Of a DNA stretch of 64,000 nt, positions 42,321-59,794 are shown piece by piece. The number at the start of each line of letters is the position of its first letter. Position 1 is the stretch's first letter. The position numbers were made by a program, and so were the translations under genes. The stretch is from Escherichia coli O157 typing phage 13, in sequence record KP869111; one strand, 5' to 3'. The notes below the pieces were generated by a model. The model had not been told where the DNA came from. It saw only the letters and a list, made by a program, of their open reading frames with translations, and did no database searches.

Positions 42321-42966
42321 ATGGCCGACATCAAACGTAAGTTCAGAGCCGAAGACGGTCTGGACGCCGGTGGCGACAAGATTGTTAACGTAGCATTAGC
42401 CGACCGTACAGTAGGTACTGATGGCGTAAACGTTGACTTCCTGGTACAAGAAAACACCGTTCAAGTATATGATTCTACGCGTGGATATAACAAAGGATTT
42501 GTTGTTCTTTATGACAACCGTTTATATCAAGCAATAAATGATATCGTGTCTCCTTCCGGGGCATTTAACCTTTTACAATGGCGTGCAGTTCGTACCGATG
42601 CACAATGGATAACTGTCGCTTCTGGGACTTATCAACTTTCTTCAGGTGAATCTATTTCGGTTAACACTGGTGCCGGCAATGATATGGTTTTCACGTTGCC
42701 AAATACGCCGGTTGATGGTGATACTGTTGTTTTGGCTGATATTGGTGGAAGAACCGGGACAGTTAAAGTACAGATTAACGCGTCTGTGCAGAGTATTTTA
42801 AACTTTAGAGGTGAACAAGTTCGTACAGTTTTAATGACGCGCCCACGTTCACAACTATTGTTTGTGTTTAGTAATCGTTTGTGGCAGATGTATATTACCG
42901 ATTATGGTAAAGAATCAATCACTGTTACACCTGCGACACCATATCAAGCACAAGCAAATGATTTTA
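42321..42966 (+). CDS. 34: Long tail fiber proximal subunit gp34, N-terminal 215 codons only (runs into N-run)
   Basis: MADIKRKFRAEDGLDAGGDKIVNVALADRTVGTDGVNVDFLVQENTVQ... matches the T4 gp34 N-terminus; frame is not continued after the N-run. Confidence 0.85.
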
Positions 42967-43066
42967 NNNNNNNNNNNNNNNNNNNNNNNNNNNNNNNNNN
43001 NNNNNNNNNNNNNNNNNNNNNNNNNNNNNNNNNNNNNNNNNNNNNNNNNNNNNNNNNNNNNNNNNN
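42967..43066. other. Run of 100 N at the junction between the two syntenic blocks
   Basis: Unresolved bases; sequence after it belongs to a different gene and to the opposite T4 orientation. Confidence 0.99.
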
Positions 43067-43125
43067 GCTACTATTGTTATCTCTCCGGCTGAAGAGACCG
43101 CACTGTTTAAAGCTAAGCATATTTC
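43067..43125 (+). CDS. 3' end of an unidentified CDS (possibly the upstream topoisomerase-subunit gene)
   Basis: Open frame from the N-run ending ...ATIVISPAEETALFKAKHISVAQLKIIAKTLL; T4 synteny would put gene 60 here; not verified. Confidence 0.35.
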
Positions 43126-43157
43126 TGTAGCTCAGCTTAAAATTATTGCAAAAACTC

Positions 43158-43187
43158 TTCTGTAAGTAGTTTACATCTTGATAGGGC
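43158..43187 (+). promoter_or_regulatory. T4-type early promoter (palindromic subfamily)
   Basis: GTTTACatcttgaTAGGGCTAtgtTATAGTAGTCCTAtcaaaac. Confidence 0.5.
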
Positions 43188-43226
43188 TATGTTATAGTAG
43201 TCCTATCAAAACAAATAGAGTCCACA

Positions 43227-43466
43227 ATGATTTATTACGAAAGTATCGGAACCAAAGTGGTTGGTAAAACCATTACTCGTGAAAAGTTTGCAAAGATATT
43301 CGATATGCGTTATAAAAAATCTGAACACAAAGGCATCCGATTCGAAGATGCGCACTGTACAATTTGCCCTTATAATGAAGACATAAACGGTACAATCGTT
43401 CCATTGGTAGAGGCTTCACATGATGACCTCTGGGATGAATATAATATCGCATGTCGTGAAATTTAA
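43227..43466 (+). CDS. Hypothetical 79-aa protein
   Basis: ORF downstream of an early promoter. Confidence 0.55.
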   Translation: MIYYESIGTKVVGKTITREKFAKIFDMRYKKSEHKGIRFEDAHCTICPYNEDINGTIVPLVEASHDDLWDEYNIACREI

Positions 43467-43494
43467 GTTAATGAATTAATCCGAGGAAAATATT

Positions 43495-44486
43495 ATGATG
43501 TTAGTTATTGGTTCTCGTGCACTTCACTATCACGGTCTTATTGATTCTAGCGCTATTAAAAATAGTGATTGGGACTTTATTGCGGACCAAGGTTCTTGGA
43601 ATGCATTCAAAAATCAAATGATGGGTGTATATGTTCACCAAGATAACCCTGATGTCCAAGTTTTCAAATGCTTCCATAATGGACGCGAAACTCATTTTGA
43701 AGCATATATTGTTCCGGCAATCACTAATGTCCGTGAATTAGTCGGTGAACTCACTCCTGAAGATTTCACGTCTTCTTATGACCTTTTAAAATACGCCAAG
43801 AAAAATTTGACTAAAGACCGTTTGAACGGGTTTTACTGGGCAACTCCTGAGATATGTCTTGCAATTAAGATGTCTCATCGTTTCAAGAAAAATAATCCAT
43901 TCTTTTTAAAGACTATGAACCATATTCAGTATCTTCGTGGTAAAGGTGTTACACTTAACGATGAACTTACTGAAATTATGCTGAAACGNNNNNNNNNNNN
44001 NNNNNNNNNNNNNNNNNNNNNNNNNNNNNNNNNNNNNNNNNNNNNNNNNNNNNNNNNNNNNNNNNNNNNNNNNNNNNNNNNNNNNNNNNNNNNNNNNNNN
44101 NNNNNNNNNNNNNNNNNNNNNNNNNNNNNNNNNNNNNNNNNNNNNNNNNNNNNNNNNNNNNNNNNNNNNNNNNNNNNNNNNNNNNNNNNNNNNNNNNNNN
44201 GAAGTTTGAATCACTTCCGGAAATGGTCAAATTGGCCGGTGTATATGAAGAAACATGTGTACTAGCGTTAGAACGTTCTCAGATTCCTAATGGCTTTGAA
44301 ATCCATCCTCGTGATAGTTTTATGATGGCATTAGAAAAGGTCTGTACTTCAATCACATCAGGCTGGTTCCGTGAGTATGCCTGGGAGAACTATGGCAAAG
44401 TAGTAAGTATGTATCAAAGCTTAGGACACGACGATTACGTCAAGCGTTTCAAACAAAATTTTCATATGGTAAAACCTTTCAAATAA
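43495..44486 (+). CDS. Hypothetical protein of about 259 aa, interrupted by an N-run (43989-44200)
   Basis: SD GAGGAAAAT before ATG; 5' and 3' parts are in frame if the N-run has zero real length. Confidence 0.5.
43989..44200. other. Run of 212 N
   Basis: Unresolved bases inside a CDS; flanks join in frame when the N are removed. Confidence 0.99.
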
Positions 44487-44498
44487 TTTCACCAAACT

Positions 44499-44528
44499 GT
44501 TTACAAGGTCTGTAGTTGTTGATACTAT
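44499..44528 (+). promoter_or_regulatory. T4-type early promoter
   Basis: GTTTACaAGGTCTgtagttgttgaTACTATAGACCTatcaaaac with inverted-repeat arms. Confidence 0.5.
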
Positions 44529-44565
44529 AGACCTATCAAAACAAATGAGTGAATGGAGATACAAA

Positions 44566-44766
44566 ATGACTACTTTGAATAAACGTTTCGGTAAAGCTAA
44601 ACCTGGCTGTGCAGCAGAACGTCGTTACATTTTCGCTCAGTTAGAAGATGTAGAGTATCAGATTAATCAAGTTCACATTACTGGCATCGAGCCTATGTGT
44701 GGCCTTGAAGCTCTTCGTGAAGTTCGTGACGGGTATCGTCGTGATATCGAAGAAATGTCAAAATAA
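44566..44766 (+). CDS. Hypothetical 66-aa protein
   Basis: Start chosen at the ATG preceded by SD GGAGA (MTTLNKRFGK...). Confidence 0.5.
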   Translation: MTTLNKRFGKAKPGCAAERRYIFAQLEDVEYQINQVHITGIEPMCGLEALREVRDGYRRDIEEMSK

Positions 44767-44796
44767 GTGTACAAACTGATAGGACTATGTTATAGT
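44767..44796 (+). promoter_or_regulatory. T4-type early promoter (palindromic subfamily, -35 GTGTAC)
   Basis: GTGTACaaactgaTAGGACTAtgtTATAGTAGTCCTAttaaaac. Confidence 0.45.
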
Positions 44797-44824
44797 AGTC
44801 CTATTAAAACATGAGGAGAATATT

Positions 44825-44924
44825 ATGAAATTAGGCGAAACCAACCGAATTGGTCTTTTAACAATATTTGTATCACTTTTTTACGCAGCTCTTTCTGTTG
44901 CAGTATTACAAAAGGCTTACAGTA
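44825..44924 (+). CDS. 5' end of a CDS with a hydrophobic N-terminus, running into an N-run
   Basis: SD GAGGAG; MKLGETNRIGLLTIFVSLFYAALSVAVLQKAYS; in frame with the rIIA body if the N-run is zero-length. Confidence 0.35.
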
Positions 44925-45024
44925 NNNNNNNNNNNNNNNNNNNNNNNNNNNNNNNNNNNNNNNNNNNNNNNNNNNNNNNNNNNNNNNNNNNNNNNNNNNN
45001 NNNNNNNNNNNNNNNNNNNNNNNN
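44925..45024. other. Run of 100 N
   Basis: Unresolved bases at the 5' boundary of the rIIA homology. Confidence 0.99.
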
Positions 45025-46554
45025 GAACGTGGTAATATCATGGCTGTTTATGGCGGTATTGTATATCCAATCGGAAGTGTTATTAAAGAACAAACATGGA
45101 TGATGACGCGATGCACTACAGCTTATATTAAATTCCCTATGGGTGAACTAGATGTAGCCCCGTCTCGTGAAGCATTGTCATTTGATAAACGTACAGTAGC
45201 AAATATCCATAAACGCGTTGCAGAAATCGATGCTAAATTGTTTGCTGAAGATTCTAAGAAATGGATTGATTGTAAATACCCACGTCATGTGTTCCGTGAA
45301 ATTGATTCTCTTGGCTATACCGCTCGTAAATACATGGAAAAGGCCGGGTCTAATATTGAATCACTGAAATACTCTAAAGAACAACTAACTTATTCTGAGT
45401 TGTACAAACGTTTTAAAATGGGGCCTGAGTGGTGTAATCTTGGCGTCGTATACGATATCGTTGAATCCCCTCGTCTTCGTCGTATTCGTGAAAGTGGTAG
45501 CTCATCATCAACCATTTCAATTAACAGCCTGATTGGCATTAACATTAAAAACGTTGAAATTGTTATTGACGACGTTAAGGGACGCGTTCCATTAATGCGA
45601 GCTCTTAATTCAATTGAAATGTCTAAAGACGAGGTTAAATTAACTGGTAAAGTTCCACGTGGTTTTGGTAAAAGCGTACTATTCGTTGACCCTACAGACG
45701 AAGATGCAATGAAACTTCTGGAACGCCTTAAAGTTATCTTTGATGGCGACAACATTAACATGTACAAGACTTCAGAGCTTTTACAAATCGTTAAGCCATG
45801 GATTGAAGTCAGGAAACGAACTAATGAGCCTCGTCCTAAATCCCCAAGTGCTCATCGGTTCTTTAAGAATGAAAATGATGTTTGGGTATCAGAAGATCTC
45901 TTTATTCCGGCAAGTGAAGCAGATGAAATCCAAGGTTATGCTATAGTTCGTAATCGTTCTAATGCTGAATGTCTTGACGCAGATAAAGGTTGGTTGAATT
46001 ATGATTCTAATTTCTTGACTCGTATTGCCGATTTGTCAGGTATTAAAGAGTTCACTGTAGTTCGCCCACAGATTGCTAAGAAAGTTCGTAAACTTGGTGA
46101 AGTAGAATGCTTGTTCGAAAAATCAATTAATGACTATATTACGCTAATTGATAAAGTGGATTATGATGAGTATGTATCACCAAGTCGTAGAGCACAGCCT
46201 TATTTGAATCATATTACTCGTAATGAAGAGCTTAACTTCCTTAGTAAGTATTTTAGCTCTAAGAACAAAGAAATCAGTAAAGATTTTGCAAAACTTTCAA
46301 CAGTAAATAATCGTTGGGGATGGAATCGATTCGCAGGTGCTGATAACAGAGACCTGAACAGGAAGTTAGAATTGTGTGCTAAAATTTTCGATAAGCTTAA
46401 AGATAATGCTTACGATTATGATGATAAAATGGTTATTGAATTTGAAACCAATTATCATATTGTGTCAGAATACATGGGACGACGTGGTACTCTTTCCAAA
46501 GAACAGGTCACTCAAATCGTTAAATTCATGAAGGCTGTGGAAGCAGCCAAATAA
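45025..46554 (+). CDS. rIIA: rIIA protein, C-terminal about 510 aa (N-terminal about 245 aa of the T4-length protein not present)
   Basis: ...AVYGGIVYPIGSVI...YIKFPMGELDVAPSREALSFDKRT... aligns to T4 rIIA from about residue 245 to the end; followed by rIIB. Confidence 0.85.
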   Translation, partial: ERGNIMAVYGGIVYPIGSVIKEQTWMMTRCTTAYIKFPMGELDVAPSREALSFDKRTVANIHKRVAEIDAKLFAEDSKKWIDCKYPRHVFREIDSLGYTARKYMEKAGSNIESLKYSKEQLTYSELYKRFKMGPEWCNLGVVYDIVESPRLRRIRESGSSSSTISINSLIGINIKNVEIVIDDVKGRVPLMRALNSIEMSKDEVKLTGKVPRGFGKSVLFVDPTDEDAMKLLERLKVIFDGDNINMYKTSELLQIVKPWIEVRKRTNEPRPKSPSAHRFFKNENDVWVSEDLFIPASEADEIQGYAIVRNRSNAECLDADKGWLNYDSNFLTRIADLSGIKEFTVVRPQIAKKVRKLGEVECLFEKSINDYITLIDKVDYDEYVSPSRRAQPYLNHITRNEELNFLSKYFSSKNKEISKDFAKLSTVNNRWGWNRFAGADNRDLNRKLELCAKIFDKLKDNAYDYDDKMVIEFETNYHIVSEYMGRRGTLSKEQVTQIVKFMKAVEAAK

Positions 46555-46563
46555 GGAAACATT

Positions 46564-47511
46564 ATGTACAATATCAAATGCTTGTCCCAAGAAGAACAGT
46601 TAGAAGCTTACGGCCTGGTTGAATCAGGCAAATGGACTCGTAAAGAAATTGCCGATTACTTCGACATTTCAACAGATACTCTTCGTAAGATTGTTAAGAA
46701 TTTTAAAGCAGAAGGCGTTGTCCCTGAAGCAAACGATGCCTCTTATGTAATCGAAGAAGTTCCAGAAAATGATGAACCTATTATCGGCGGACATCGTCCT
46801 GAAATCGTATGGAACGCGTCATCTAAATTTATTTCAATTATTGAAGGACGCGTAGCATACAATGCGACCCCATCAAGTCATGCAAATTTTGAAGAAATTA
46901 AAGCTAATCTGGTCGCAGGAAACCTTAGTAAAGCTGTCGAACTTATTAACATCAAGAAAGCTATTACTAAGTTTGTTGATGGTAATGTTACTATTGAAGG
47001 TGGTAGTTTATTTTATCAAGGTATAGAGATTCGTTCAGGGCTGGTTAACCGTATTATTGATTCCATGGAAAAAGGTGAAGACTTTAAATTCTATCTGCCA
47101 TTCCTTGAAAACCTGTTAGAAAACCCAAGCGAAAAAGCTGTACAACGTTTATTCGACTTCTTGGTTGCAAACGATATTGAAATCACTGAAGATGGGTATT
47201 TCTATGCATGGAAAGTAGTTCGTAAGGACTATTTAGACTGCTATAGTGGTACATTTGATAACTCCCCAGGTAAAGTTGTTTCAATGCCTCGTACTCGAGT
47301 TAACGACGATGATACTCAAACCTGTTCTCGCGGTCTCCACGTTTGTGCTAAATCTTATATTCGCCACTTTGGTTCAAGCTCAGATAAAGTTGTGAAGGTT
47401 AAAGTTCATCCACGTGATGTTGTATCCATCCCAGTTGACTATGGTGATGCTAAGATGCGTACTTGTCGTTATGAAGTAATTTCAGACGTTACTGAATTAT
47501 TTGCAGAATAA
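46564..47511 (+). CDS. rIIB: rIIB protein
   Basis: 315 aa versus 312 in T4; MYNIKCL... N-terminus and highly conserved C-terminal half. Confidence 0.93.
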   Translation: MYNIKCLSQEEQLEAYGLVESGKWTRKEIADYFDISTDTLRKIVKNFKAEGVVPEANDASYVIEEVPENDEPIIGGHRPEIVWNASSKFISIIEGRVAYNATPSSHANFEEIKANLVAGNLSKAVELINIKKAITKFVDGNVTIEGGSLFYQGIEIRSGLVNRIIDSMEKGEDFKFYLPFLENLLENPSEKAVQRLFDFLVANDIEITEDGYFYAWKVVRKDYLDCYSGTFDNSPGKVVSMPRTRVNDDDTQTCSRGLHVCAKSYIRHFGSSSDKVVKVKVHPRDVVSIPVDYGDAKMRTCRYEVISDVTELFAE

Positions 47512-47514
47512 TAA

Positions 47515-47540
47515 TTGGGGACTTCGGTCCCCTTTTTTTT
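47515..47540 (+). terminator. Rho-independent terminator after rIIB
   Basis: GGGGAC-UUCG-GUCCCC followed by T8. Confidence 0.65.
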
Positions 47541-47554
47541 CTTTAGGGGTAATT

Positions 47555-47842
47555 ATGATTCATCCATTTGACGTATCAGAATCCAAAATTGCTAATCTTC
47601 GTGGTCATCATAAGTGTAAATCAGTTTATTGTGCTAAATTGGTAAAACATCCTGGCGATGCACACTATGGCTGGTTAGAATGTGACGAAGTTGTTATTGA
47701 AATCCCACCGGTAGATGCAGAATATCTTGAAGAAGGTGACCGCATTTATTTTGGCGAACTACACATTAGAGGTATCTATGGTAAAGACGAACTTGGGACT
47801 GTTGAGGCTGAAGAGTCTTCCGACATTTATCCTGTCGAATGA
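47555..47842 (+). CDS. Hypothetical 95-aa protein
   Basis: Start at ATG with SD-like GGGGTAATT; Cys/His-containing. Confidence 0.5.
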   Translation: MIHPFDVSESKIANLRGHHKCKSVYCAKLVKHPGDAHYGWLECDEVVIEIPPVDAEYLEEGDRIYFGELHIRGIYGKDELGTVEAEESSDIYPVE

Positions 47843-47858
47843 GTTTTTGACTAGCGAA

Positions 47859-48335
47859 ATGAAGGTTAAGATCGCTGATACTGCTCGGTACTCGTTGAAA
47901 CAAGATCCAGGTCAAATAAAAGAAGACGTTGTTCGACGTTGTAAGGTTGCAGTCTTTGCAGAGTATGTAGTAGCAAATTGGCTAGACGGATATGTTAATA
48001 AAGGTAATGAAGACGTAGAAGACCCGTACACGTATGCATGGGACGTTTTAGCTCATCCTAAGTACTGTGGTCTACGCGTAGAAGTAAAGACCCATCAGAT
48101 GGATTCGAAATGGATTTCGGTTACCACAGGATACGGTGGTGATTATCCAGGTGGCAACGGAATCAACATAGGGCCCTTCTTGAACCATCGAGTCGCAGAT
48201 TGCATTATTATATTAGATGTCAAAGAAACCTCACCTGACGTCTTCTCTTATTCTATAAAGTTCGTGGGAGACCATGAAGACCTAAAGAAAATCGTCCGCA
48301 AGAGCAACTACAACGGGTGGTATCTTCATCTTTAA
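47859..48335 (+). CDS. denB: Putative endonuclease IV (DenB-like)
   Basis: 158 aa from the in-frame ATG; sits where T4 has denB after rIIB; the identification rests on position. Confidence 0.55.
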   Translation: MKVKIADTARYSLKQDPGQIKEDVVRRCKVAVFAEYVVANWLDGYVNKGNEDVEDPYTYAWDVLAHPKYCGLRVEVKTHQMDSKWISVTTGYGGDYPGGNGINIGPFLNHRVADCIIILDVKETSPDVFSYSIKFVGDHEDLKKIVRKSNYNGWYLHL

Positions 48336-48346
48336 TTTCATAAAAG

Positions 48347-48377
48347 TGTTTACAACTAAGTAGGACTATGATATAGT
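48347..48377 (+). promoter_or_regulatory. T4-type early promoter (palindromic subfamily)
   Basis: GTTTACaactaagTAGGACTAtgaTATAGTAGTCCTAtctaaa. Confidence 0.5.
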
Positions 48378-48403
48378 AGTCCTATCTAAAAGAGGATAAC
48401 ATC

Positions 48404-48667
48404 ATGAAATTTAAATTTTTCTACGCAAAACATAAAGTAACAGGCGAATTTGTTTCAATGTACAACACTGCAGATGACGAAGGGATGATTTATACCCATT
48501 TGGGTCTATCTCATTGGGACTCAGACGTGCCTTATATGTCATCTGAAGCCGAAATAACTCGTTTAGTTAATGGACATATGAACGACCATTTTAGTGTTAT
48601 CCTTTCTAAAGACCTTAAAGAGGTTATCAACAAAGGATATATGGAACTCGCGGAAGTTGAGATATGA
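48404..48667 (+). CDS. Hypothetical 87-aa protein
   Basis: ORF with SD GAGGA downstream of an early promoter. Confidence 0.5.
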   Translation: MKFKFFYAKHKVTGEFVSMYNTADDEGMIYTHLGLSHWDSDVPYMSSEAEITRLVNGHMNDHFSVILSKDLKEVINKGYMELAEVEI

Positions 48668-48859
48668 GCTCTAAAATGTGGATCGGAATATGGTTGCTTA
48701 GTATCCCAATGATTTGTATAATATTTTCAATTGTGTTGAGGTACTTATGAAAAATGCACTTCTTATTGTACTAAGATCAATTTGTGATACGGGTTTTTAC
48801 ATTGCATGTTCGTTCACTGGAACATGGTTGGCTTTAACATATTTTAATGTAATTTAATT

Positions 48860-48889
48860 GTTTACAACAAGGTAGGATTATGGTATAGT
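48860..48889 (+). promoter_or_regulatory. T4-type early promoter (palindromic subfamily)
   Basis: GTTTACaacaaggTAGGATTAtggTATAGTAGTCCTActgaaac. Confidence 0.5.
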
Positions 48890-48917
48890 AGTCCTACTGA
48901 AACATGAGGAACACAAA

Positions 48918-49118
48918 ATGGCTAAGCTTTTTAAAGATGTTGAAATTGGTGAAAAATTTGTTCTGAATAATGGTCAGCAGCTTATTCGTGTAGCTTCTAT
49001 CGCCGGACAAACTCATAACTGTATCGCCCCAACGTGTTGGACTCGATTTTTTATTGAAGATGACACTGAATGTTTAACTGTTGAAGAGCTTTTTGAACGT
49101 TCTGATATGACCGAATAA
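48918..49118 (+). CDS. Hypothetical 66-aa protein
   Basis: ORF with SD GAGGAA downstream of an early promoter. Confidence 0.5.
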   Translation: MAKLFKDVEIGEKFVLNNGQQLIRVASIAGQTHNCIAPTCWTRFFIEDDTECLTVEELFERSDMTE

Positions 49119-49194
49119 AATTGTACAAACTCTTGAGAGCAGAGTATAATGCTCTCATGGATTACAAAAACATTAATCAATTGAGGAAATTAGC

Positions 49195-49641
49195 ATGTCC
49201 AAATATTTAACTCGTAAAGACCTTCTGGCAGTTGGCGGTGAAGTTGTTGCAGTAGTTCGTAATGGCGAATACGGTTCTGAAGTTTCTAAAGAGTTTCGTT
49301 CTCGTGAAGGTTTTTACTTCTTTGTTAAAGGTTCATCTGATTGGCGACAAGTAGCAGCACGATTCTTTGTAGGACGTCAACGTTCTAAACAAGGGTTGGA
49401 TGCAATTCTTTCTCACATTCGTCAAGGCCGTTCGCAACTAGCCCGTACCATGGGCACTAATAATATTGAATATGATGTAATCTTTGTTGCAGCTAAGAAC
49501 ATGAAACCACTGACCACCGGTTATGGTAAAGGTCAATTGGCTCTGGCATTCACTCGCAACCATACATCAGAATATCAAACACTCACTGAAATGAACCGTC
49601 TTCTGGCTGATAATTTCAAATTCATTCTGCAGAGTTACTAA
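49195..49641 (+). CDS. ndd: Nucleoid disruption protein Ndd
   Basis: 148 aa versus 151 in T4; central region ...QRSKQG...LSHIRQ...RSQLART... and C-terminus KPLTTG...[13 protein letters not shown]...SEYQTL...EMNR...LADNFKF... match T4 Ndd. Confidence 0.88.
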
Positions 49642-49694
49642 TTTATACAGGCCCTATTAAGTTAGGCCTTTAATTTATTTTTGAGGTAATTAAA

Positions 49695-49841
49695 ATGGTA
49701 GCATGGATTATTGCATTGCTGTGTTGGTCGTTTTTATTCGTTAACACTTTAGTTACAGGCGAAACAACAGTATTTCAACAGGCCGTATCACAAGGTACCT
49801 TAGCGGTCTTAGCTCTTATTAACGTGTTAAAAGGCGAGTAA
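49695..49841 (+). CDS. Hypothetical 48-aa membrane peptide (below ORF-track cutoff)
   Basis: SD GAGG; single predicted TM helix; stop overlaps the next start (TAATG). Confidence 0.4.
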   Translation: MVAWIIALLCWSFLFVNTLVTGETTVFQQAVSQGTLAVLALINVLKGE

Positions 49842-49981
49842 TGATTAAGAAAATCTTAGCAGGAGCCTTCGGGCTCTTGTTGTTGCTTACGGTTCTGTAC
49901 TACGGTGTGATGTTTGGACTAATCCAAGTAGTGCTTTTCATTTCAGATGTTATAATGGATATTCGTTCATTAATATGGTGA
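49841..49981 (+). CDS. Hypothetical 46-aa membrane peptide (below ORF-track cutoff)
   Basis: Leu-rich hydrophobic core; translationally coupled; T4 has small membrane genes (ac, ndd.x) here. Confidence 0.4.
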   Translation: MIKKILAGAFGLLLLLTVLYYGVMFGLIQVVLFISDVIMDIRSLIW

Positions 49982-49985
49982 AAAT

Positions 49986-51394
49986 ATGCAATTGAATTCT
50001 CGTAATCTAAAAAGTATTATTGATAACGAAGCCTTAGCATATGCGATGTACACCGTTGAAAACCGTGCAATCCCAAACATGATTGATGGATTTAAGCCGG
50101 TTCAACGTTTTGTGGTCCATCGTGCGTTAGATTTGGCTCGTGGTAATAAAGAAAAATTTCATAAACTTGCGTCAATTGCAGGCGGTGTTGCAGATTTAGG
50201 TTATCACCATGGTGAATCTTCTGCACAAGATGCAGGTGCATTGATGGCTAACACATGGAACAACAACTATCCACTGTTAGATGGCCAAGGCAACTTTGGT
50301 TCTAGAACAGTCCANNNNNNNNNNNNNNNNNNNNNNNNNNNNNNNNNNNNNNNNNNNNNNNNNNNNNNNNNNNNNNNNNNNNNNNNNNNNNNNNNNNNAA
50401 AGCTGCAGCATCTCGTTATATTTTTGCTCGTGTAAGTAAAAATTTCTATAACGTATATAAAGATACTGAATATGCTCCAGCTCATGAAGATAAAGAACAC
50501 GTTCCACCAAAATTCTATCTTCCTATTATTCCGACAGTTCTTTTGAATGGTGTATCTGGTATTGCAACCGGTTACGCAACAAATATTCTGCCTCATAGTT
50601 TTAAATCGGTAAAAAAGGCTGTATTACAAGCTCTTCAAGGTAAAAATGTCACTAAGCCAAAAGTTGAATTCCCGGAATTCCATGGTGAAGTACATGAAGT
50701 TGATGGGCGTTATGAGATTCACGGAACATATAAGTTCACATCTCGCACTCAAATGCAGATAACTGAAATCCCATATAAATTCGACCGTGAAACGTATGTG
50801 AGTAAGGTTCTTGACCCGTTGGAAGACAAAGGTCTAATCTCATGGGAAGATGATTGTGGTGAACACGGCTTTGGGTTTAAGGTGAAGTTCCGTAAAGAGT
50901 ACTCGCTTCCTGATGATGAAGAGCTACGTCATGAAAAAATCATGAAAGATTTTAGTCTCATCGAACGTCGTTCACAAAACATCACAGTGATTAATGAAAA
51001 GGGTAAATTAGCAGTCTACGATAACGTAGTGGACTTAATCAAAGATTTTGTTGAAGTCCGTAAGACTTACGTTCAGAAACGTATTGACAACAAAATCCTT
51101 GAATCTGAAAAAGCATTTAAACTGGCTTTTGCTAAGGCACACTTCATCAAAAAAGTTATCAACGGTGAAATCGTGATTCAGGGCAAGACTCGTAAAGCTT
51201 TGACTGAAGAGCTAGCACAAATCGAAATGTATAAAGAACATGTCGATAAACTGGTAGGTCTTAACATCTTCCATATCACTTCCGATGAAGCACGTAAACT
51301 AGCAGAAGAAGCTAAAGCTAAGAAAGAAGAAAATGAGTATTGGAAGTCTACTGATGTTGTGACAGAGTACACTAAAGACTTGGAGGCACTTTGA
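49986..51394 (+). CDS. 52: DNA topoisomerase II medium subunit gp52, interrupted by an N-run (50315-50398)
   Basis: Both halves recognised as T4 gp52 (GyrA-like); halves sum to about 441 aa versus 442 in T4, so the 84 N stand for only about 1 nt. Confidence 0.9.
50315..50398. other. Run of 84 N inside gene 52
   Basis: Flanking codons are off by one frame, consistent with about 1 missing base rather than 84. Confidence 0.99.
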
Positions 51395-51465
51395 GTGCTA
51401 TAGCCTTAGGATTTCTCGGTGCAATAGCTGTACTAGTGATTTGGCTGTATTGGTTGGACAAACAT

Positions 51466-51490
51466 GATTAGGGAGCTTCGGCTCCCTTTT
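51466..51490 (+). terminator. Rho-independent terminator after gene 52
   Basis: GGGAGC-UUCG-GCUCCC followed by UUUUG. Confidence 0.55.
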
Positions 51491-51512
51491 GTGCATTTTT
51501 CTCACAAAACAG

Positions 51513-51540
51513 TTTACATGCGCTTCAATCATGATATTAT
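51513..51540 (+). promoter_or_regulatory. T4-type early promoter upstream of motA
   Basis: GTTTACatgcgcttcaatcatgaTATTATagacctatcaaaac (17-nt spacer). Confidence 0.5.
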
Positions 51541-51579
51541 AGACCTATCAAAACAAAACAACCAAATTGGAGAAATAAA

Positions 51580-52212
51580 ATGTCTAAAGTTACTTACATC
51601 ATCAAAGCTTCTGAAAACGCTCTGAATGAAAAAACTGCTGCAATAATGGTTTATATCATTAAGAACAACTTCACCACTGCTGCCAATGTCCGTGAAGCTC
51701 TGGAAGCAGAATACAATGCATCAGTTGTTAACTCTAACATTGGTGTATTGATTAAGAAAGGTTTAGTCGAAAAATCTGGTGATGGACTTGTGGCAACCGG
51801 CGAAGCAATGGATATTATCCAAAAAGCTGCAGACCTATTTGCTCAAGAAAATGCTCCAGAACTTCTTCAGAAACGTAACACCAGAAAAGCACGTGGAGTT
51901 ACTCCTGAAATGCATGAATTAGCAAACTTTGTTTTTGAAAATATTAAAGATAAAGTTGAAGTTAAAGAAATTGGTGAAAACCGTAGTAACTTAGAAGTTC
52001 GATTTGCAAAACGAGTTCTAGGCATTCGCCAAATTGAAATTCGACGAGATGGCGCTCTTAGAATCTTTGCATACAACATGTCAGAAACTGAATCAAAGCT
52101 GTTTACTTCTCTTGAAAATGATGTTAAGATTAAGATCGGTGGTAAATATACTTACATTGACTTCCCTAATGTGTCCAAAGAAATCATTACCCTTGTAACT
52201 AACGTACTGTGA
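51580..52212 (+). CDS. motA: MotA middle-transcription activator
   Basis: 210 aa versus 211 in T4; MSKVTYIIKAS... and VVNSNIGVLIKKGLVEKSGDGL match T4 MotA. Confidence 0.92.
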   Translation: MSKVTYIIKASENALNEKTAAIMVYIIKNNFTTAANVREALEAEYNASVVNSNIGVLIKKGLVEKSGDGLVATGEAMDIIQKAADLFAQENAPELLQKRNTRKARGVTPEMHELANFVFENIKDKVEVKEIGENRSNLEVRFAKRVLGIRQIEIRRDGALRIFAYNMSETESKLFTSLENDVKIKIGGKYTYIDFPNVSKEIITLVTNVL

Positions 52213-52222
52213 GGAATACGTA

Positions 52223-52552
52223 ATGAATAAGCTGAATATTATTAACGAACTTCGTAAATGTGCAGAACCTACTCAGGAAGGATGGGATATTTGGTACCAC
52301 GGTGCTTATTTAGGGACAATTGTAAAGATTAAAGCAGGCCAATATACGGTTATTCGTGAAAATAATGACGCGCCATTTGGTCTTCGTAAAAACTACATGG
52401 CAGCGATCAGTTCGTTTGTTGATGCAGCTTACGAAATCTATAAAGAAGATTATAAAGAGTATCAGCAGTCACAACCGGTTATTCGTTCGATTGGTGTAAA
52501 TAAACAAGCACAAAAATCTATTTGGCAACGTATTAAGGAATGGTTTAAATGA
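52223..52552 (+). CDS. Hypothetical 109-aa protein
   Basis: ORF with SD GAGGAA in the motA-asiA interval. Confidence 0.5.
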
Positions 52553-53010
52553 AATCATTTAAAGAACGTTTAGAGCTATTAGATTTGGCCTTGTCTCGTG
52601 AGACTCCTGAAAGTCTAGCAGAAAAATTCCAGTCCTACGGTTATAATTATTCTGCTGATGATATAATGAATGAAGTTCCTGAAATCTGTTGGCAAACGTG
52701 CTATTGGAACAATGACCAAAAAGTTCAACGTGTTATAGTATGTGCAGCTAATAGGTTTAAATTGAAGAGCGGTGGAACTCTGGTTATTCCTGGAGTTCGT
52801 CATTACTCTAAAGATATGGCTGAAGTACTTGATATAGTTGGTCCTCAATTAGTCTCGCAACAAGTTTGTGGCGATGACCAAGGCTTTATCGACCAATACT
52901 CTAATTACTGGACTCGTGAAGAAGCAATGATTATTGCAACATATGCTGGACAGGTACGTATTGAACGTGGCGGAAGTGAGAAAGAACTTTATTCAGAGGA
53001 CCTTTATTAA
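52549..53010 (+). CDS. Hypothetical 153-aa protein
   Basis: ORF with ATGA overlap to the upstream gene; no motif recognised. Confidence 0.55.
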
Positions 53011-53291
53011 TGAATATTAAACAACTCCAGAAAGATGCTATTGAATCACGTATCCAAGATATCAAACGTCTTAATCATATGATGGAAGAAAACTATGGTA
53101 TGTATGCTAATCAGCCTGGTTGGGATGCTTTAGACCATCCTTATTTGGTTAATTTATGTAAAGGTGATACGTTAGCAATTATTCGTGATGGGTTAAAACC
53201 TTTCTTGCGTGACATGTATATTAAAATGAACGAAGAAATTATTAGCTCGTTGCAATATCAATTAAGGAAATTAGATGATGAGAATAATTGA
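53010..53291 (+). CDS. Hypothetical 93-aa protein
   Basis: ORF translationally coupled (TAATG) to the upstream gene. Confidence 0.5.
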   Translation: MNIKQLQKDAIESRIQDIKRLNHMMEENYGMYANQPGWDALDHPYLVNLCKGDTLAIIRDGLKPFLRDMYIKMNEEIISSLQYQLRKLDDENN

Positions 53292-53493
53292 TTCTAAAGC
53301 GGATTATTTTAATTCTGTTAATGATAAGAATAAAGCTTTAATTCGCCACTTTATTACTGAGATGGGATATACCGACTCTAAAGATTTGAAAGAGCACATT
53401 ATCGAATGTTCTGTGGCTAAAAAGTTTTCTTTCACAGACAAATGTTTAAACGAGGTTATAAATCATTATGAACAATCTTGTAGCAAAACATGA
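53275..53493 (+). CDS. Hypothetical 72-aa protein
   Basis: ORF overlapping the upstream stop; could correspond to an Arn-like small protein but not verified. Confidence 0.45.
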   Translation: MMRIIDSKADYFNSVNDKNKALIRHFITEMGYTDSKDLKEHIIECSVAKKFSFTDKCLNEVINHYEQSCSKT

Positions 53494-53576
53494 TTTCAAT
53501 AAGGCTTCTGTCCATAAGGACAAGAAGAAATCAGAACTTCAATCTAAACGCAAACAAAAACATAAGGGTAAAGACT

Positions 53577-53876
53577 ATGCTTACTAAAATCAAAGAAAAT
53601 CCTGCCACTGAACTTGTTATTCGATGTGAAGAACTTGCAGAGCTTTATCAGGTTAACCGAGAAGTGTGTCGTAGTGTTATCGTAGATATGGCAGACGAAG
53701 TATGTTCTCGTATTCCTTTTAGTGTCGATTTCAATCACATGAAGCCTGGTGAAATCACTATCGTCTTTGGTTCTGACTATACTGAAGAACGGGCTCTTAA
53801 TGTCCTAGAATATGAAATGTCATTCTTCGACATACAGGACTACATTGATAGTTATAAGGAACAATATGAGTCATAA
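53577..53876 (+). CDS. Hypothetical 99-aa acidic protein
   Basis: Start trimmed to the ATG with SD AAGGGTAAAG (MLTKIKENP...). Confidence 0.45.
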   Translation: MLTKIKENPATELVIRCEELAELYQVNREVCRSVIVDMADEVCSRIPFSVDFNHMKPGEITIVFGSDYTEERALNVLEYEMSFFDIQDYIDSYKEQYES

Positions 53877-54027
53877 TCTTCAGAACGTAGTAGAGGCCGA
53901 ACGTGAGCGTGAGGCTTTAGTCTATAATGAACTATTAGTTCCATTCTTGGCCTTACACTCGTATGAACAGGAAGACTACATTGATTACGTTAAAAGCGTA
54001 GAAAAAGCCGTTTACAATCAACACTGA
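53866..54027 (+). CDS. Hypothetical 53-aa protein
   Basis: Start trimmed to the ATG with SD AAGGAA (MSHNLQNVVEAE...); overlaps the upstream stop. Confidence 0.4.
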   Translation: MSHNLQNVVEAEREREALVYNELLVPFLALHSYEQEDYIDYVKSVEKAVYNQH

Positions 54028-54073
54028 TAATGGTACTATATCCATATCAACTAAGTGGAATGAATAAAACGTT

Positions 54074-54346
54074 ATGAATAAAGACATTGAAATCGTACGT
54101 GAAATTATTACTATTGCTTCTATTTTGATTAAATTCTCTAGGGAAGATATTGTTGAAGACCGAGCAAGTTTCATCGGATTCTTGAATGAGATTGGAATTA
54201 AAAAAGATGGTCGGCAGCTAAATCAGAATTCGTTCAGAAAACTAATTACAAATTTAACTGCCGAAGAAAAGAAAACACTGATTAGTGAATTCAATGAAGG
54301 TTTTGAAAATATTTATCGTCATTTAGCGATGTATTCTAACAACTAA
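54074..54346 (+). CDS. asiA: Anti-sigma-70 factor AsiA
   Basis: 90 aa as in T4; MNKDIEIVREIITIASILIKFSREDIVE... near-identical to T4 AsiA as recalled. Confidence 0.93.
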   Translation: MNKDIEIVREIITIASILIKFSREDIVEDRASFIGFLNEIGIKKDGRQLNQNSFRKLITNLTAEEKKTLISEFNEGFENIYRHLAMYSNN

Positions 54347-55006
54347 TTATTTAGCCCTTCCTAGTATTCGGATCGCTTGGTTGCATATAGCCGCTAAGCG
54401 ATCTTCCTCAAGTATATTACTCCCCTTATACCAATACATCGTCACAGTTCCAGCATAGATGTTATCCAAATTAAAGTATGGACAACTATACATATAAGAA
54501 AGTTCGGCAGTCTTAGATTTTGTAGGCAAAAATGCAAATTCTGATTTAGATGAGAAATGACGGCCACTTAAATGAATTATATATTCATTGGCCGTTTTAT
54601 CCACTGGGAATCCGCCAAGGGACTTTTCAGAAATTGTGCTAGGTAGTTTGCCTTCATAAGCTATAAGGTCGACAAAATAATTTAAGTTTTTAGGTCTGAA
54701 AGAATACACAGCACTAAAATCTGCACCAGATGAGATATGAACTATTTGCAGTTGTTCTAGAGCCGCAGATTCAAAACGTAAAGCTCGTTCTTTTTGGATT
54801 ATTTCAGTATAAGTATCATACTTAGCTCTTACATAATAATCCAGCAAAATACTTCCTTTGTACCATATTAGTGCCATTAGGAACAAAAGAATAATTACCG
54901 CTACTCGGGACATTAAAACCTTTCCAGTAGCGTTATCTTTGAAAATACGATCTAGCAACCCAAATAGAATATCACTAGGCGAAAATGATACTTTTGGTGT
55001 TGCCAT
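54347..55006 (-). CDS. t: Holin T
   Basis: 219 aa versus 218 in T4; FSPSDILFG...DNATGKV and the periplasmic domain match T4 holin; convergent with asiA. Confidence 0.93.
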   Translation of the reverse strand: MATPKVSFSPSDILFGLLDRIFKDNATGKVLMSRVAVIILLFLMALIWYKGSILLDYYVRAKYDTYTEIIQKERALRFESAALEQLQIVHISSGADFSAVYSFRPKNLNYFVDLIAYEGKLPSTISEKSLGGFPVDKTANEYIIHLSGRHFSSKSEFAFLPTKSKTAELSYMYSCPYFNLDNIYAGTVTMYWYKGSNILEEDRLAAICNQAIRILGRAK

Positions 55007-55015
55007 AATACCTCC

Positions 55016-55567
55016 TTACTTAAAGATATTTATAATCGCTTTGATAATAGATTTGTTTTCAAGGTCAGGGAATTTAGGGAATTCGCCGCCAAGATGTTCA
55101 TGTTTTTCTAAAAGGGCAAAGAATTTTTTGAGCTCTTTAAATTTTCGTTTTTCTTCTCTACTAGCAACCTCTGCGTCAATAAGAGAACTTAAAACACTGA
55201 ATAATTTATAGAGTTCATGAATTTTCTTATCACGTTGAACTACGCGTTTATATGCTTCATCTTCCTTCCACCCGTCGTCGGTCCAAATGTCAAATTCACC
55301 GGGTTCTTCTGTAGTAACATTTTGAAGAGCACCTGGAGTGTCAATAACAATTTTTTGCTTATCATAAGTCCATACCGTTTTTCCACGATGGTCTTCAACA
55401 TATACCCATTCTTGCTCGCGTTCGTCAAATATAACAGCATAGCCTTCTTTAGGGTCTAAAGGTTTTTTTGGTGTCGAATGAGCCGGAAATCCTACGCCTT
55501 TTAATGGTTTATAATTTTCTTCTTTGTAAAATTCTTTAGTGTCAAAATAATAGTGATAGAGTTTCAT
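55016..55567 (-). CDS. 38: gp38 tail-fiber assembly chaperone (T4 type)
   Basis: Start set to MKLYHYYFDTKEFYKEENYKP... (T4-like N-terminus); the ORF-track start 18 nt upstream lies inside a hairpin. Confidence 0.85.
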   Translation of the reverse strand: MKLYHYYFDTKEFYKEENYKPLKGVGFPAHSTPKKPLDPKEGYAVIFDEREQEWVYVEDHRGKTVWTYDKQKIVIDTPGALQNVTTEEPGEFDIWTDDGWKEDEAYKRVVQRDKKIHELYKLFSVLSSLIDAEVASREEKRKFKELKKFFALLEKHEHLGGEFPKFPDLENKSIIKAIINIFK

Positions 55568-55598
55568 ATTATAAAAAAGGGACATAAGTCCCTTCTCC

Positions 55599-58500
55599 TT
55601 ATGCTAAACGAACGATATAGTTAAAAGCAACGTTTTTAACTGTGTTTTCTGTATTTCCTGTGGCATTTACAGTTATTGTATGTCCATGGGAACCAATTGC
55701 AACAGTATGAGAATGAGCACCAATACCTACCGAATGGGTATGAGCACCAATACCCACAGTATGAGCATGGTTACCTGTGGTACTTGTGGTTCCTGACCAA
55801 GAGTGTGTATGGTTACCTTCTGAAGAAGTTTTGGCTATATTCGACCCTGCAGTAGCACCGTTCACGGTTCCAGTGAATTTAGCGTTGGCGTTTGCACCTA
55901 CACTATTATATCCGTCATAGAATATGTTATTGGGTATGCCAGCTTGTATCTGAGGACCTGAGCGCGCATGTTGGTGGTTACCTGCAGCACTTGTAGTTCC
56001 ACNNNNNNNNNNNNNNNNNNNNNNNNNNNNNNNNNNNNNNNNNNNNNNNNNNNNNNNNNNNNNNNNNNNNNNNNNNNNNNNNNNNNNNNNNNNNNNNNNN
56101 NNNNNNNNNNNNNNNNNNNNNACCGTATGGTTATGGTTACCTGTGGTATTACTGGTTTTAGTACCATAATCAAAGCTTGAAGATGTTTTAGTACCATAAT
56201 CAAAGCTTGATGTGGTTTTAGTACCTAAATCAGTATTAGATGCTGAAGCACTATGGTTATGAGACTTAATACCATCAGCTTCTGTACTTAATACATCACG
56301 CCCAGATGGTTTACCTTTAATCGTCTGACCACGCATATCGGGCAGAGTGCCGGAAGGATACACCGCAGCTAACTTAGGATACAAGCCAGTATCAAATGTT
56401 TGACCTTCCATTATGGCATAACCTTCAGGAGGTGTATCAGTAGGCCAAGGAATCGGAGCACCAATAGGATAACTTGAGACAATATCTGTCTTAAGGTTAT
56501 TTATTGTGGTATTCAAGTTAGCAAAATTACCAGAACCGCCGGTGATATTACCATCAGTACCAATACGAACATTACCAGCGCCTAATTTACCAGGAGAGTA
56601 NNNNNNNNNNNNNNNNNNNNNNNNNNNNNNNNNNNNNNNNNNNNNNNNNNNNNNNNNNNNNNNNNNNNNNNNNNNNNNNNNNNNNNNATCACCGTTTTTA
56701 TTAAATTCCCAACCTAAATCCTTTATAATTGCGCCAGTAGAAACGCCGTCACCACCTTCGTGATAGTGAACTCTAAAGTTACCACCATTAATTAAAGTAC
56801 CAATAGAATAGCAACTATTATTTTGAACGTATCTTTGTTTCACAATAGGAACATAAGTGCTTGTATCTGTTCTATCAATATTCATATAGAACGGAGCACG
56901 AACGTTTTCATTATTCTGAGAAGCAAAAGAACCGGCTCCAGCAGGTCGTGCAGTATCAGTACATTCAGCGTCGATATATGCCGATTGTCCTAATTGCATA
57001 CGGTAATTAGGAGAAATGCGACTATGACTAGTTATAACAACAAGTTTATTATCATTATCAACGGTCACCATATTACCGCCAGCACCATCATCACCTAACG
57101 TAACAGAATGGCGCATTTGAACCATACCGTTGTTAAGAGAAACACTCAATGGGCGAAGGTTAGAAATACCACCATTTTCACCTGCATCTTTAAGTGTAGG
57201 TATAATATGCAAAGACGCTTCAGAACGACGGAAAATAGCTCCATATTCAGCATTGTAAATACGGAAAGCATCTGCGGTATTGCCGATTTTAACTTGACCG
57301 GTAATAGAACCACCGCCGGATAAAACAAGCCCGTTATCCATAGTAACTTGTCCGGATAATGTACTTAATCCATTAACTCTAAGACTTCCATCGGTGATAA
57401 TGCTCCCTCTTGCATTCAGTTGTCCATTAATTTGTGTTACAACAGGTCCCACAGTTTCTGAACCGGTTGGAGCTACGCGCTGAGAATAAAAATAATATCC
57501 CTGGCCGTCAGCTACTTCAAAAACTGTTTCACGATTACGATCGCCAGATGCGTTAAATGAATTACCCCATGCTTTAACAGTTACATAGCTTTTATTCTGA
57601 CCAGCACGAGTACCGCCTTCCCACAAAATTTGCTTAGTGCCATCAATTGTAGTAGTTGGAGCGAATGTTAGCCCAGCAGTAGAATTATTAGCTGCTAAAT
57701 ATATGCCGTTATATATTGAAAGCTGCTTAACAGATGTAATACCGCCATCAGCATAAAACATTACATTATTAGAGCCAGTTACTAGTTTAAGAATACCCGG
57801 GTTAATTTCCATACCTTGTTGGGTATTGATATTCATCTGACCTGTACCACGGAAATAGTGGTTCATTTTACCACCAGCATTGTACCCGATATGGGTTTGT
57901 CCGTCTCCAGCATTGTTATTATCAGCTTGTGTTTGAACAGACAAGAGAGCAGCATTTGTACCAGGCATAATCCATGTGGTGCCTTGGTCCTCGGAACGAC
58001 CAAATATACCTTTACGAGTACTACGGAAACTGTCAGGAGTAATAGAAGCAACAGAATTCCAATTACCTACTAAATCATAAACACCCTGCTTAATGTATTT
58101 TAAACCAGTGGCAGCATCACCCAAAGCAATATATCTTTCTCCCATTGGAGTAGGAGAGCCGTAGTTATTGGTATTTTCATCAGTGGTAATTGTGCCAATA
58201 GCAAGTGAACGACGTAATACCATTGCGCCATCATTACGAAGACCCATTAATTTAGTAGTAAGTGTATTTCCGGTCCACCAAGAAATTTCATCATTCTTAC
58301 CAGTTTGAGCTGAAGCGATTTCATGGTAAATAGTTCCACCTGATTTAGCTCGAACTTTACGAAGATAGTTTATACCATTTTCTTCACCTGTTCCAGGATA
58401 AACATATTGAACTAATGACTGTGAATCATATTGTCCGAATGCTTTTGTGTCTAAAACAATGGTTTTCGTATTAACTTGTGGAGCAGAAACTATACCATTA

Positions 58501-59081
58501 GCGGAGTTAATATTGCCTGACGCAGAAATATTACCTGCGCGGACCTCAATACTACCAGAATCTACAATAAAATTACCATTACGGTTAAAGACCCAGTGTT
58601 TAGAATTGTCTGGAGCTGTAGAATCAATATAATGAACTCTAAATGAGCCTTCGCTTACTAATGTACCTACTGAAAAAGTACCGTCTTTATAACGTTGCTT
58701 AATCAAAGGGTGGTATTCAGAAGTTGAAGTAGTTGAACTCAAATCTGTAAAGATAGGGGCTTTATTTGTGTGTTGGTTAGCCCAAGCGCCATTTCCAGCA
58801 GTTTTTGGCAAGAATTCAATATACTTTCCTGCATAAACAAACTGGTTTCCATTAAGATTATACGTGCCGTTTTGTAAATAATCACCATTTTGAGTTACAT
58901 TACCGTTAATATCCCCGCCCTTAGCAAAGCCTAGGCTAATAATATTACCGAGGTCATCTTTAGTAAAAAGAGTTCGATCTTTTAAGTTTATCGCTAATTC
59001 GCCTTCGGCTAATTGTGCTGCAGTAGGATTAACTCCTGCTACTTTGCTTCTTTTAAATTGTATCTGTTTTAATGTAGCCAT
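55599..59081 (-). CDS. 37: Long tail fiber distal subunit gp37 (two N-runs inside)
   Basis: Large ORF between genes 36 and 38; C-terminal tip rich in G-x-H-x-H motifs as in the T4 gp37 needle domain. Confidence 0.9.
56003..56121. other. Run of 119 N inside gene 37
   Basis: Unresolved bases; reading frame maintained across it. Confidence 0.99.
56155..56244 (-). repeat. 30-bp tandem repeat (about 2.5-3 copies) inside gene 37
   Basis: gttttagtaccataatcaaagcttga(a/t)g(a/t)t repeated at 56155, 56185, 56215; encodes repeated DYGTKT(S/T)SSF decapeptide near the receptor-binding tip. Confidence 0.8.
56601..56687. other. Run of 87 N inside gene 37
   Basis: Unresolved bases; length is a multiple of 3 and frame is maintained. 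Confidence 0.99.
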
Positions 59082-59089
59082 AAGTCCTC

Positions 59090-59755
59090 TTAATAATAGC
59101 CGAAATCTTGAACAGAATCTTTAATTACAATCTGGTCGAAACGAGGAACATGATTAGCCTCAGACGCCGGATTCTGTGAGAAAAAGTTTGGTGCTGTTAA
59201 AGTACCAGTCATGGTATCGCCTTTACGCAATACACGGGAATTTGCGTTATCCGTAACAATATTTATTCGTCCATCAACATAATCTTTTCTAGTAAGGTCA
59301 TTCGCTGCTATAGGAGCAGCCGCATCACTTCTTACTTGACCAGCTGCCGACACAACGCCTTTTGTATTAATATCACCATTACGTGTATTAATTACTACAG
59401 TTCTACCCGCTGTTCCTTGTGATGATTTAAAACCAATACCATACCACGAAACAATATCAATATTTGCTGTAACAAAAGTAGCTGCATCTCCATTACCAGG
59501 ATAAATACCAGATTGATTTGTATTGTTTATAGCATATGGTATTTGAACACCGCCGTTAAATGTTACCTTTGATGCATAAGTACCACCATTTGCTTTAGAA
59601 ACGAAATCATTATCAGCAGCTTGTGGCTTATTATATTCTGAATAGAGTTTAAACGTTTTATACAGGACGTCATCACCTGCTGGCATTAAAGGGAAATTAC
59701 CTTGATGCCATATAACGGCACCGCCAGTTGTACTACCAGCTTTTAAATCGGCCAT
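59090..59755 (-). CDS. 36: Long tail fiber distal connector gp36
   Basis: 221 aa as in T4; position between genes 35 and 37. Confidence 0.92.
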
Positions 59756-59779
59756 AGTTGTCTCCTTATATGTATACCA

Positions 59780-59787: not shown

Positions 59788-59794
59788 CAAAAAT

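Follow-up and report, generated by a model that had tools for sequence, protein, structure and literature searches.

Cassettes that join an early promoter to a stem-loop (PeSLs) have reportedly been described in T4-type phages by Arbiol et al. in 2010 and by Comeau et al. in 2014. They are defined by a sigma-70-like early promoter combined with a stem-loop that sometimes overlaps the -10 box, and they occur in the hyperplastic regions of T4-type genomes (PMC2839356, PMC4122927). Among described nucleotidyltransferases, the MenT toxins modify tRNA (PMC7450476, PMC10435456), and bacterial RlaP adds one or two nucleoside monophosphates (NMPs) to damaged RNA 3' ends (PMC12776372; PMC7824862). Here we analysed a window of 64,000 nucleotides (nt) from Escherichia coli O157 typing phage 13 (KP869111), in which small open reading frames (ORFs) of 79, 66 and 101 amino acids (aa) and one large, interrupted gene appear to lie upstream of rIIA. 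We consider it probable that three statements hold together: the block is a misplaced Mosigvirus contig, it carries three units driven by PeSL-type cassettes, and its large gene encodes a 318-aa protein of a nucleotidyltransferase family.

By megablast, the genomes closest to the window were those of Mosigvirus (RB69-like, T4-type), with the near-identical E. coli O157 typing phages 3 and 6 as the best matches. The complete genome of typing phage 3 (tp3, NC_041863) served as the reference for alignment. Window positions 1-42966 corresponded to tp3 43295-383 in reverse orientation, 43067-43214 to 75027-75174, 43168-43988 to 82065-82885, 44201-44924 to 83063-83786, and 45025-64000 to 149951-168578 in forward orientation. 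Collinearity with every complete relative was lost exactly at two runs of 100 N (Table 1), and both runs are therefore joints of contigs that do not neighbour one another and differ in orientation without consistency. Exactly at these runs, three genes were cut (gp34, an ipI-like gene and rIIA). Codons 1-215 of gp34 lay on the plus strand at 42321-42966, where the gene was cut after codon 215, and the remainder lay on the opposite (minus) strand at 60906-64000; the ipI-like gene lacked its first 63 codons at the N-run. The stretch 43067-44924 is a small Mosigvirus contig that the draft scaffold has set between unrelated contigs, and this forms the first part of the joint reading given above.

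An earlier note on this DNA had placed the genes of the block upstream of rIIA, a position that is an artefact of the two 100-N joints. No contiguous sequence in the window linked the block to an intact rIIA 5' end, as a 100-N spacer lies between them and rIIA is without 228 codons. In tp3 the distance from the block to rIIA was 66 kb, and 5' of rIIA stood a homologue of T4 rIIA.1 (gp128) and topoisomerase genes, as in T4. The gp128 protein aligned with T4 rIIA.1, and its gene is what truly stands before rIIA in this lineage. The 66-aa ORF of the window resembles rIIA.1 in length (both are about 66 aa) but has no relation to it. T4 was compared by tblastn of the 79-, 318-, 66- and 101-aa proteins and by a hidden Markov model (HMM) of the 318-aa family, both against the six-frame translation. 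No T4 homologue of any of the four proteins was found by tblastn, and neither search returned anything at E<1 for the 318-aa protein, in agreement with the earlier view that it has no counterpart among known T4 ORFs.

These results bear on the idea that the block is a novel insertion of three genes between gene 60 and rIIA, with early promoters of their own and an unrecognisable 259-aa protein read across a zero-length N-run. T4 does carry only rIIA.1 at that place, as the earlier note had stated, the proteins are without a T4 homologue, and deletion of the N-run does bring the visible halves of the large gene into one frame. Such an insertion is nevertheless scarcely credible. The block is flanked by non-collinear contig ends with truncated genes, and the tp3 alignment refutes the proposed position; rIIA is preceded by the rIIA.1 homologue in complete relatives. 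The large ORF is without its own promoter copy and matches two Pfam families and one PHROG, and the identical relative carries 177 nt in the gap, which encode 15 residues invariant in a 57-sequence family alignment.

The window contained eight N-runs, of 118, 100, 212, 100, 84, 119, 87 and 67 bases. Their length carries no information on gap size, because the runs at 22334-22451, 50315-50398, 56003-56121, 56601-56687 and 60839-60905 (118, 84, 119, 87 and 67 N), for which tp3 is 100% identical, correspond to only 66, 1, 2, 3 and 3 nt in tp3. Findings that span an N-run in this window, such as an "unexpected neighbour" or a "split gene", are suspect. The 212-N run leaves two visible halves of the large gene (43495-43988 and 44201-44486), from which residues 1-165 and 225-318 can be read, and the second half as given resumes in another frame. 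The flanks of this gap were 99.6% and 100% identical to tp3, in which segments 82065-82885 and 83063-83786 bracket 177 nt within a 957-nt gene for a hypothetical protein of 318 aa (YP_009592833.1). The earlier proposal that the halves form one gene was borne out. The predicted true product is 318 aa and not the 259 aa that followed from taking the N-run as zero-length.

Removal of the Ns leaves the halves in one frame because 177 nt is divisible by 3; an empty gap is not the reason. Family alignments were made of 57 sequences (A1) and of a wider set of 146 sequences at about 40% identity. A zero-length join would destroy the protein, since the hidden 59 residues hold 15 that are invariant in the 57-sequence alignment (E168, Y172, H174, P175, L177, F184, F185, Y190, H194, D195, H198, P207, Y209, Y212 and V219). 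The possibility that the gene is truly disrupted in typing phage 13, with a gap of really about 212 nt, a frameshift or insertion and hence a pseudogene, draws on the fact that 212 is not divisible by 3 and that a run of this length sets the halves in different frames. This is very improbable, given that every other internal N-run overstates the real gap by 52-117 nt and that the flanks match a phage in which the gene is intact.

A 46-nt promoter/stem-loop repeat occurred in three copies in a 1.7-kb part of the window (Table 1). Promoters were scored as matches out of 12, and hairpins were graded by kcal/mol and z. In every copy, 17 nt separated a -35 TTTACA from a TG-extended -10 (TATAGT or TACTAT), the score was 9-10/12, and a hairpin of 11-13 bp enclosed the -10 (-15.5 to -18 kcal/mol, z -4.1 to -5.6). 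The stem of copy 2 differs in sequence from those of the other copies and has the same architecture. Downstream of copies 1, 2 and 3 were the 79-aa, 66-aa and 101-aa ORFs, respectively. A repeat search of the region found no promoter copy directly before the 318-aa gene, which starts 28 nt past the stop codon of the 79-aa ORF. Because of this spacing, a Shine-Dalgarno sequence of its own (GAGGAAA) and the lack of a promoter copy between them, the 79-aa and 318-aa genes form one predicted unit. The claim that each gene follows its own promoter therefore held for the 79-aa and 66-aa ORFs but not for the large ORF, as the third copy precedes the 101-aa ORF. The three cassettes would drive three units, namely a bicistron of the 79-aa and 318-aa genes, the 66-aa ORF, and the 101-aa membrane protein with genes downstream of it.

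Like PeSLs, the window repeats are intergenic, about 46 nt long and built from a sigma-70-like promoter (TTTACA-N17-TATAGT) with a hairpin over the -10, and their copies flank ORFans. The stable stem-loop, the setting in a hyperplastic region and signs of recombination between copies, which also characterise PeSLs, were found as well. The stem of the window repeats (GATAGGRCTA / TAGTCCTATC) is unlike the published RB49, PST and nt-1 types. The repeats are cassettes of PeSL architecture, with predicted promoters and stem-loops. Copy 1 was a hybrid of two tp3 copies, its left part matching the copy at 75129 and its right part the copy at 82066. Both the window and phage NRG-P0074 were without a 6.9-kb segment of tp3 (75175-82111; tRNA-Met, tRNA-Arg and 19 annotated small ORFs), and the junction of this indel lay within a 35-nt stretch common to two promoter/stem-loop copies. 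The indel at the hybrid copy is consistent with PeSL-mediated recombination. Further copies of the motif, with 6-10 mismatches over 45 nt, were present in the window at 38490 (minus strand), 48348 (plus) and 48860 (plus), and tp3 held at least nine copies, all on the same strand.

The 318-aa protein matched two Pfam families in full, DUF7277 (PF23942) over residues 2-101 (E 1e-27, 97.1 bits, profile 1-87 of 87) and DUF7275 (PF23940) over residues 120-305 (E 2.5e-78, 262.7 bits, profile 1-188 of 188), each with a cut-off of 27. It also matched phrog_2141 (E 4.5e-150, positions 1-316 of 318). By these profile matches it is a member of DUF7277 + DUF7275 / phrog_2141, all labelled "unknown function", and the statement that it resembles nothing nameable had to be given up. 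Its visible parts were 100% identical to YP_009592833.1 of typing phage 3, family members share its two-domain architecture of roughly 300 aa, and nothing sets it apart from them. Scans against NCBIfam and PADLOC gave no meaningful match, and a PDB sequence search with the single sequence and with a profile gave only a spurious match to PsaB. Paralogy with the roughly 320-aa proteins of the nrdC.x region of the same phage was considered and rejected, as typing phage 3 yielded no paralogue in a tblastn search.

A check of distribution, which the earlier note had called for, found the protein in 733 phage records, in T4-like phages and beyond. These included T4-like phages of Enterobacteria, Aeromonas, Acinetobacter and Stenotrophomonas, Phapecoctavirus, Pseudomonas phiPsa phages, and phages of Streptomyces, Gordonia and Vibrio. 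The family comprised 2163 clusters at 90% identity and 1600 at 50% identity, almost all of about 300 aa and with the same architecture. Homologues were annotated as hypothetical protein in hundreds of phage genomes and as 'putative nucleotidyltransferase' in some Acinetobacter phage records.

The residues expected of a nucleotidyltransferase were conserved throughout this family, with G6, S7, D25, D27 and E69 invariant in 57 of 57 sequences. The hG[GS] motif is formed by I5-G6-S7 (G6 in 146 of 146 sequences of the wider set, S7 in 142), and the [DE]h[DE]h motif by D25-W-D27-F at the start of the strand 26-31, where D27 was present in all 146 and the D25 column was D in 144 and E in 2. The third acidic residue, E69, lies in strand 64-73 and was E or D in 144 of 146. 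A confident AlphaFold2 model of the protein had a predicted local distance difference test score (pLDDT) of 93.6 and a predicted template modelling score (pTM) of 0.88; it places strand 2-5 and then helix 6-12 at the G6-S7 turn and has the pol-beta alpha/beta nucleotidyltransferase fold. Foldseek matched the model to 5uvd and MenT1 at E about 1e-3. When 146 members were scanned against Pfam at E<=5, only subthreshold nucleotidyltransferase families recurred (DUF6036, DUF4269 and AbiEii). The C-terminal domain held the invariant polar residues K125, H128, K139, H194, D195, H198, E240, E241, E248, R249 and R281. The 318-aa protein thus looks like a pol-beta-superfamily nucleotidyltransferase, predicted from sequence and model, in which catalytic carboxylates and fold are conserved across a large and diverse phage family. 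The genes of the block carry annotations as hypothetical proteins in hundreds of phage genomes, and the large protein belongs to curated DUF families. The residual value of the locus lies in a big, conserved, early-expressed phage family with intact nucleotidyltransferase catalytic residues and a C-terminal domain of unknown fold.

The structurally closest enzymes are those of the MenT/AbiEii group (DUF1814, PF08843; MenT1 8an4, MenT3/TglT 6j7n, MenT4 6y56). The 318-aa protein had no PF08843 match at E<=1, and only one of 146 family members had one (E 0.021). It also differs from this group in that its C-terminal domain is larger and unrelated and its gene is phage-encoded and early, with no antitoxin conserved across the family. 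The C-terminal motifs III and IV of DUF1814/AbiEii/MenT proteins supply a catalytic Lys and Asp, for example K189 and D211 of MenT3. An invariant K125-x-x-H128-R129 on the helix after the core of the 318-aa protein may be analogous to these motifs. RlaP (PF10127; T4 NrdC.11, typing phage 3 gp224) is likewise a phage pol-beta nucleotidyltransferase, of about 330 aa and with a helical C-terminal part, and offers a functional precedent for the possible action of the 318-aa protein. Identity with RlaP was rejected: the 318-aa protein had no PF10127 match and no BLAST similarity to gp224, while the controls gp224 (E 6.4e-13) and NrdC.11 (E 4.6e-12) matched. The RlaP of this phage, the NrdC.11 homologue gp224, lies elsewhere in the genome.

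We infer catalytic activity, substrate and biological role only from sequence and the predicted structure. As an active pol-beta-superfamily nucleotidyltransferase, the 318-aa protein would bind Mg2+ and nucleoside triphosphate (NTP) through D25, D27 and E69. An NMP would be passed from the NTP to an acceptor held by the basic, helical C-terminal domain with its many invariant residues. Our best guess for the acceptor, offered tentatively, is an RNA 3' end such as the acceptor end of tRNA; in that case the enzyme would act in host take-over or counter-defence at an early stage of infection. An RNA 3' end is favoured because the nearest structures are those of tRNA-modifying MenT toxins (PMC7450476, PMC10435456) and because damaged RNA ends are a known target of other small pol-beta nucleotidyltransferases in phages, namely RlaP and CCA-adding enzymes (PMC7824862, PMC12776372). 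A wider proposal, unlikely on present evidence, is that DUF7277 + DUF7275 proteins make up a large class of phage early enzymes, in which a MenT-like nucleotidyltransferase core would be combined with a structurally new, invariant-rich C-terminal domain. Such enzymes might target RNA or tRNA 3' ends, or else a nucleotide-derived defence signal, for modification or repair. If so, T4-type phages would possess a second, RlaP-independent RNA-end nucleotidyltransferase for host take-over or counter-defence.

The principal competitor for the substrate is a small molecule. In this alternative the protein would be a nucleotidyltransferase of the ANT(2'')/Lnu kind, adenylylating a hydroxyl of a metabolite, an antibiotic-like compound or a defence signal and not RNA. 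At 318 aa, however, it is much larger than the matched chains (175 and 158 residues), and its large extra domain carries invariant K125, H128, K139, R165, R249 and R281, which are more typical of nucleic-acid or polyphosphate binding. ANT(2'')-Ia (4xje), LnuA (4wh5), JHP933 (4ok0) and TM1012 (2ewr) have chains of 156-225 residues without DUF7275, and no sequence-level relation linked the 318-aa protein to these or to the ANT/Lnu families. We regard a small-molecule substrate as rather doubtful.

Bacterial CCA-adding enzymes heal and then extend tRNA 3' ends. An echo of this would be a bifunctional protein in which the nucleotidyltransferase is joined to a metal-dependent phosphohydrolase, the C-terminal domain being a very divergent HD-like domain. 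An HD-domain phosphohydrolase is not supported as the identity of the C-terminus: no H...HD...D motif on an HD helical fold was found, and the H...HD..H...EE pattern present does not bear out an HD-like reading. A bifunctional enzyme of this kind is improbable.

Several points weigh against the favoured reading of a misplaced contig with three cassette-driven units and a nucleotidyltransferase. The scores of the small-molecule enzymes ANT(2'') and LnuA are only slightly below those of the MenT toxins. The claim of an intact gene beneath the 212-N run in typing phage 13 rests on a 100%-identical relative. A literature search by DUF name, PHROG id and accession and on phage nucleotidyltransferase counter-defence returned nothing on the DUF7277/DUF7275 family, and biochemical work on any member was not found. 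The gene neighbours of the family vary among phage lineages and show no functional linkage. The contexts in distant phages differ, with PNKP, ligase and metallophosphatase in one jumbo-phage contig, SIR2 in a second and SprT in a third, and in none of them is the 318-aa homologue linked to the 79-, 66- or 101-aa ORF. The first of these is a 341-kb metagenomic contig. In it (stretches 444-1367, 6195-6974 and 8716-10134), genes for a PNKP-like kinase/phosphatase, a metallophosphatase and an ATP-dependent ligase are no more than about 4 kb from the homologue; the RNA/DNA end-repair flavour of this neighbourhood belongs to one lineage only.

Conservation also supports the small ORFs. Because homologues of the 79-, 318- and 66-aa ORFs are conserved in 241, 733 and 145 phage records, respectively, the three are judged to be real genes, ordinary Mosigvirus accessory ORFans of a hyperplastic region. 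The earlier note was right that they are present, genuine and associated with early promoters. MenA1 is a 68-aa ORF upstream of MenT1, and the 79-aa ORF, 28 nt upstream of the nucleotidyltransferase gene with no promoter before the latter, could in the same way form a toxin-antitoxin-like or enzyme-regulator pair with it, like MenA1/MenT1 or AbiEi/AbiEii. Several T4-like genera have the two genes side by side, as in Enterobacter phage IME523. The 79-aa family, however, is found in far fewer phage records than the nucleotidyltransferase and is not beside it in distant phages, the pairing being confined to enterobacterial T4-like phages; PADLOC gave no match, and a 28-nt operon spacing is the norm in T4-type early regions. 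Such a pair is possible but quite unlikely. For the 66-aa ORF, an alternative start giving 73 aa (ATG 44545) was without a Shine-Dalgarno sequence. Several Tequatrovirus phages (teqdroes, slur08, phiD1 and Ozark) had the same ORF at 97% identity, but T4 itself did not, which suggests a recent exchange of the cassette between genera.

In complete relatives the gene order was 57A, 57B, ipI-like, 79-aa, 318-aa, 66-aa, 101-aa membrane protein, 2-oxoglutarate (2OG)-oxygenase-like, membrane protein, hypothetical, nudE and e. Judged by this order, the true home of the block is the hyperplastic early region from 57A/57B(Acb1)/ipI to nudE/e. The tp3 gene 57B (24305-24760 of the tp3 segment used), annotated 'RNA ligase', is Acb1, an anti-CBASS nuclease (PF23474, E 1.3e-58), and by this profile match the public product name is a mis-annotation. 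The position of the 318-aa gene near known anti-defence genes (Acb1, internal proteins) makes it a reasonable though unexceptional candidate for an enzyme of counter-defence or RNA modification.

Table 1 Features of the block and its flanks, in window coordinates.
Feature	Position	Strand	Remarks
100-N scaffold spacer	42967..43066	.	joint of gp34 5' end (contig A, reversed) and small contig; tp3 jump 383 -> 75027
ipI-like internal virion protein gene, 3' end (last 32 codons + stop)	43067..43165	+	100% identity to tp3 75027-75125
PeSL-type early promoter and stem-loop, copy 1 (predicted)	43168..43213	+	-35 TTTACA, TG-extended -10 TATAGT inside 13-bp hairpin; 10/12; -18 kcal/mol, z -5.6
79-aa ORF (phrog_3723)	43227..43466	+	100% identical to tp3 coding sequence 82124-82363
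Gene for 318-aa DUF7277 + DUF7275 protein	43495..44486	+	predicted pol-beta-fold nucleotidyltransferase; interrupted by assembly gap
212-N assembly gap	43989..44200	.	177 nt in tp3 (59 codons, 165/166-224)
PeSL-type promoter and stem-loop, copy 2 (predicted)	44498..44543	+	TTTACA-17-TACTAT; -16.5 kcal/mol, z -4.3
66-aa ORF (phrog_6200)	44566..44766	+	GGAG Shine-Dalgarno 8 nt upstream
PeSL-type promoter and stem-loop, copy 3 (predicted)	44766..44811	+	87% identical to copy 1; -15.5 kcal/mol, z -4.1
Gene for 101-aa predicted membrane protein (phrog_9798), first 33 codons	44825..44924	+	cut by contig end
100-N scaffold spacer	44925..45024	.	non-collinear joint to rIIA contig; tp3 jump 83786 -> 149951
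rIIA without first 228 codons	45025..46554	+	begins at codon 229; contig end, not gene start

The tp3 record itself carries the same 135 nt at both ends (1-135 = 168444-168578). Its gp34 is annotated as a truncated coding sequence of 943 aa because the gene crosses the ends of the record.

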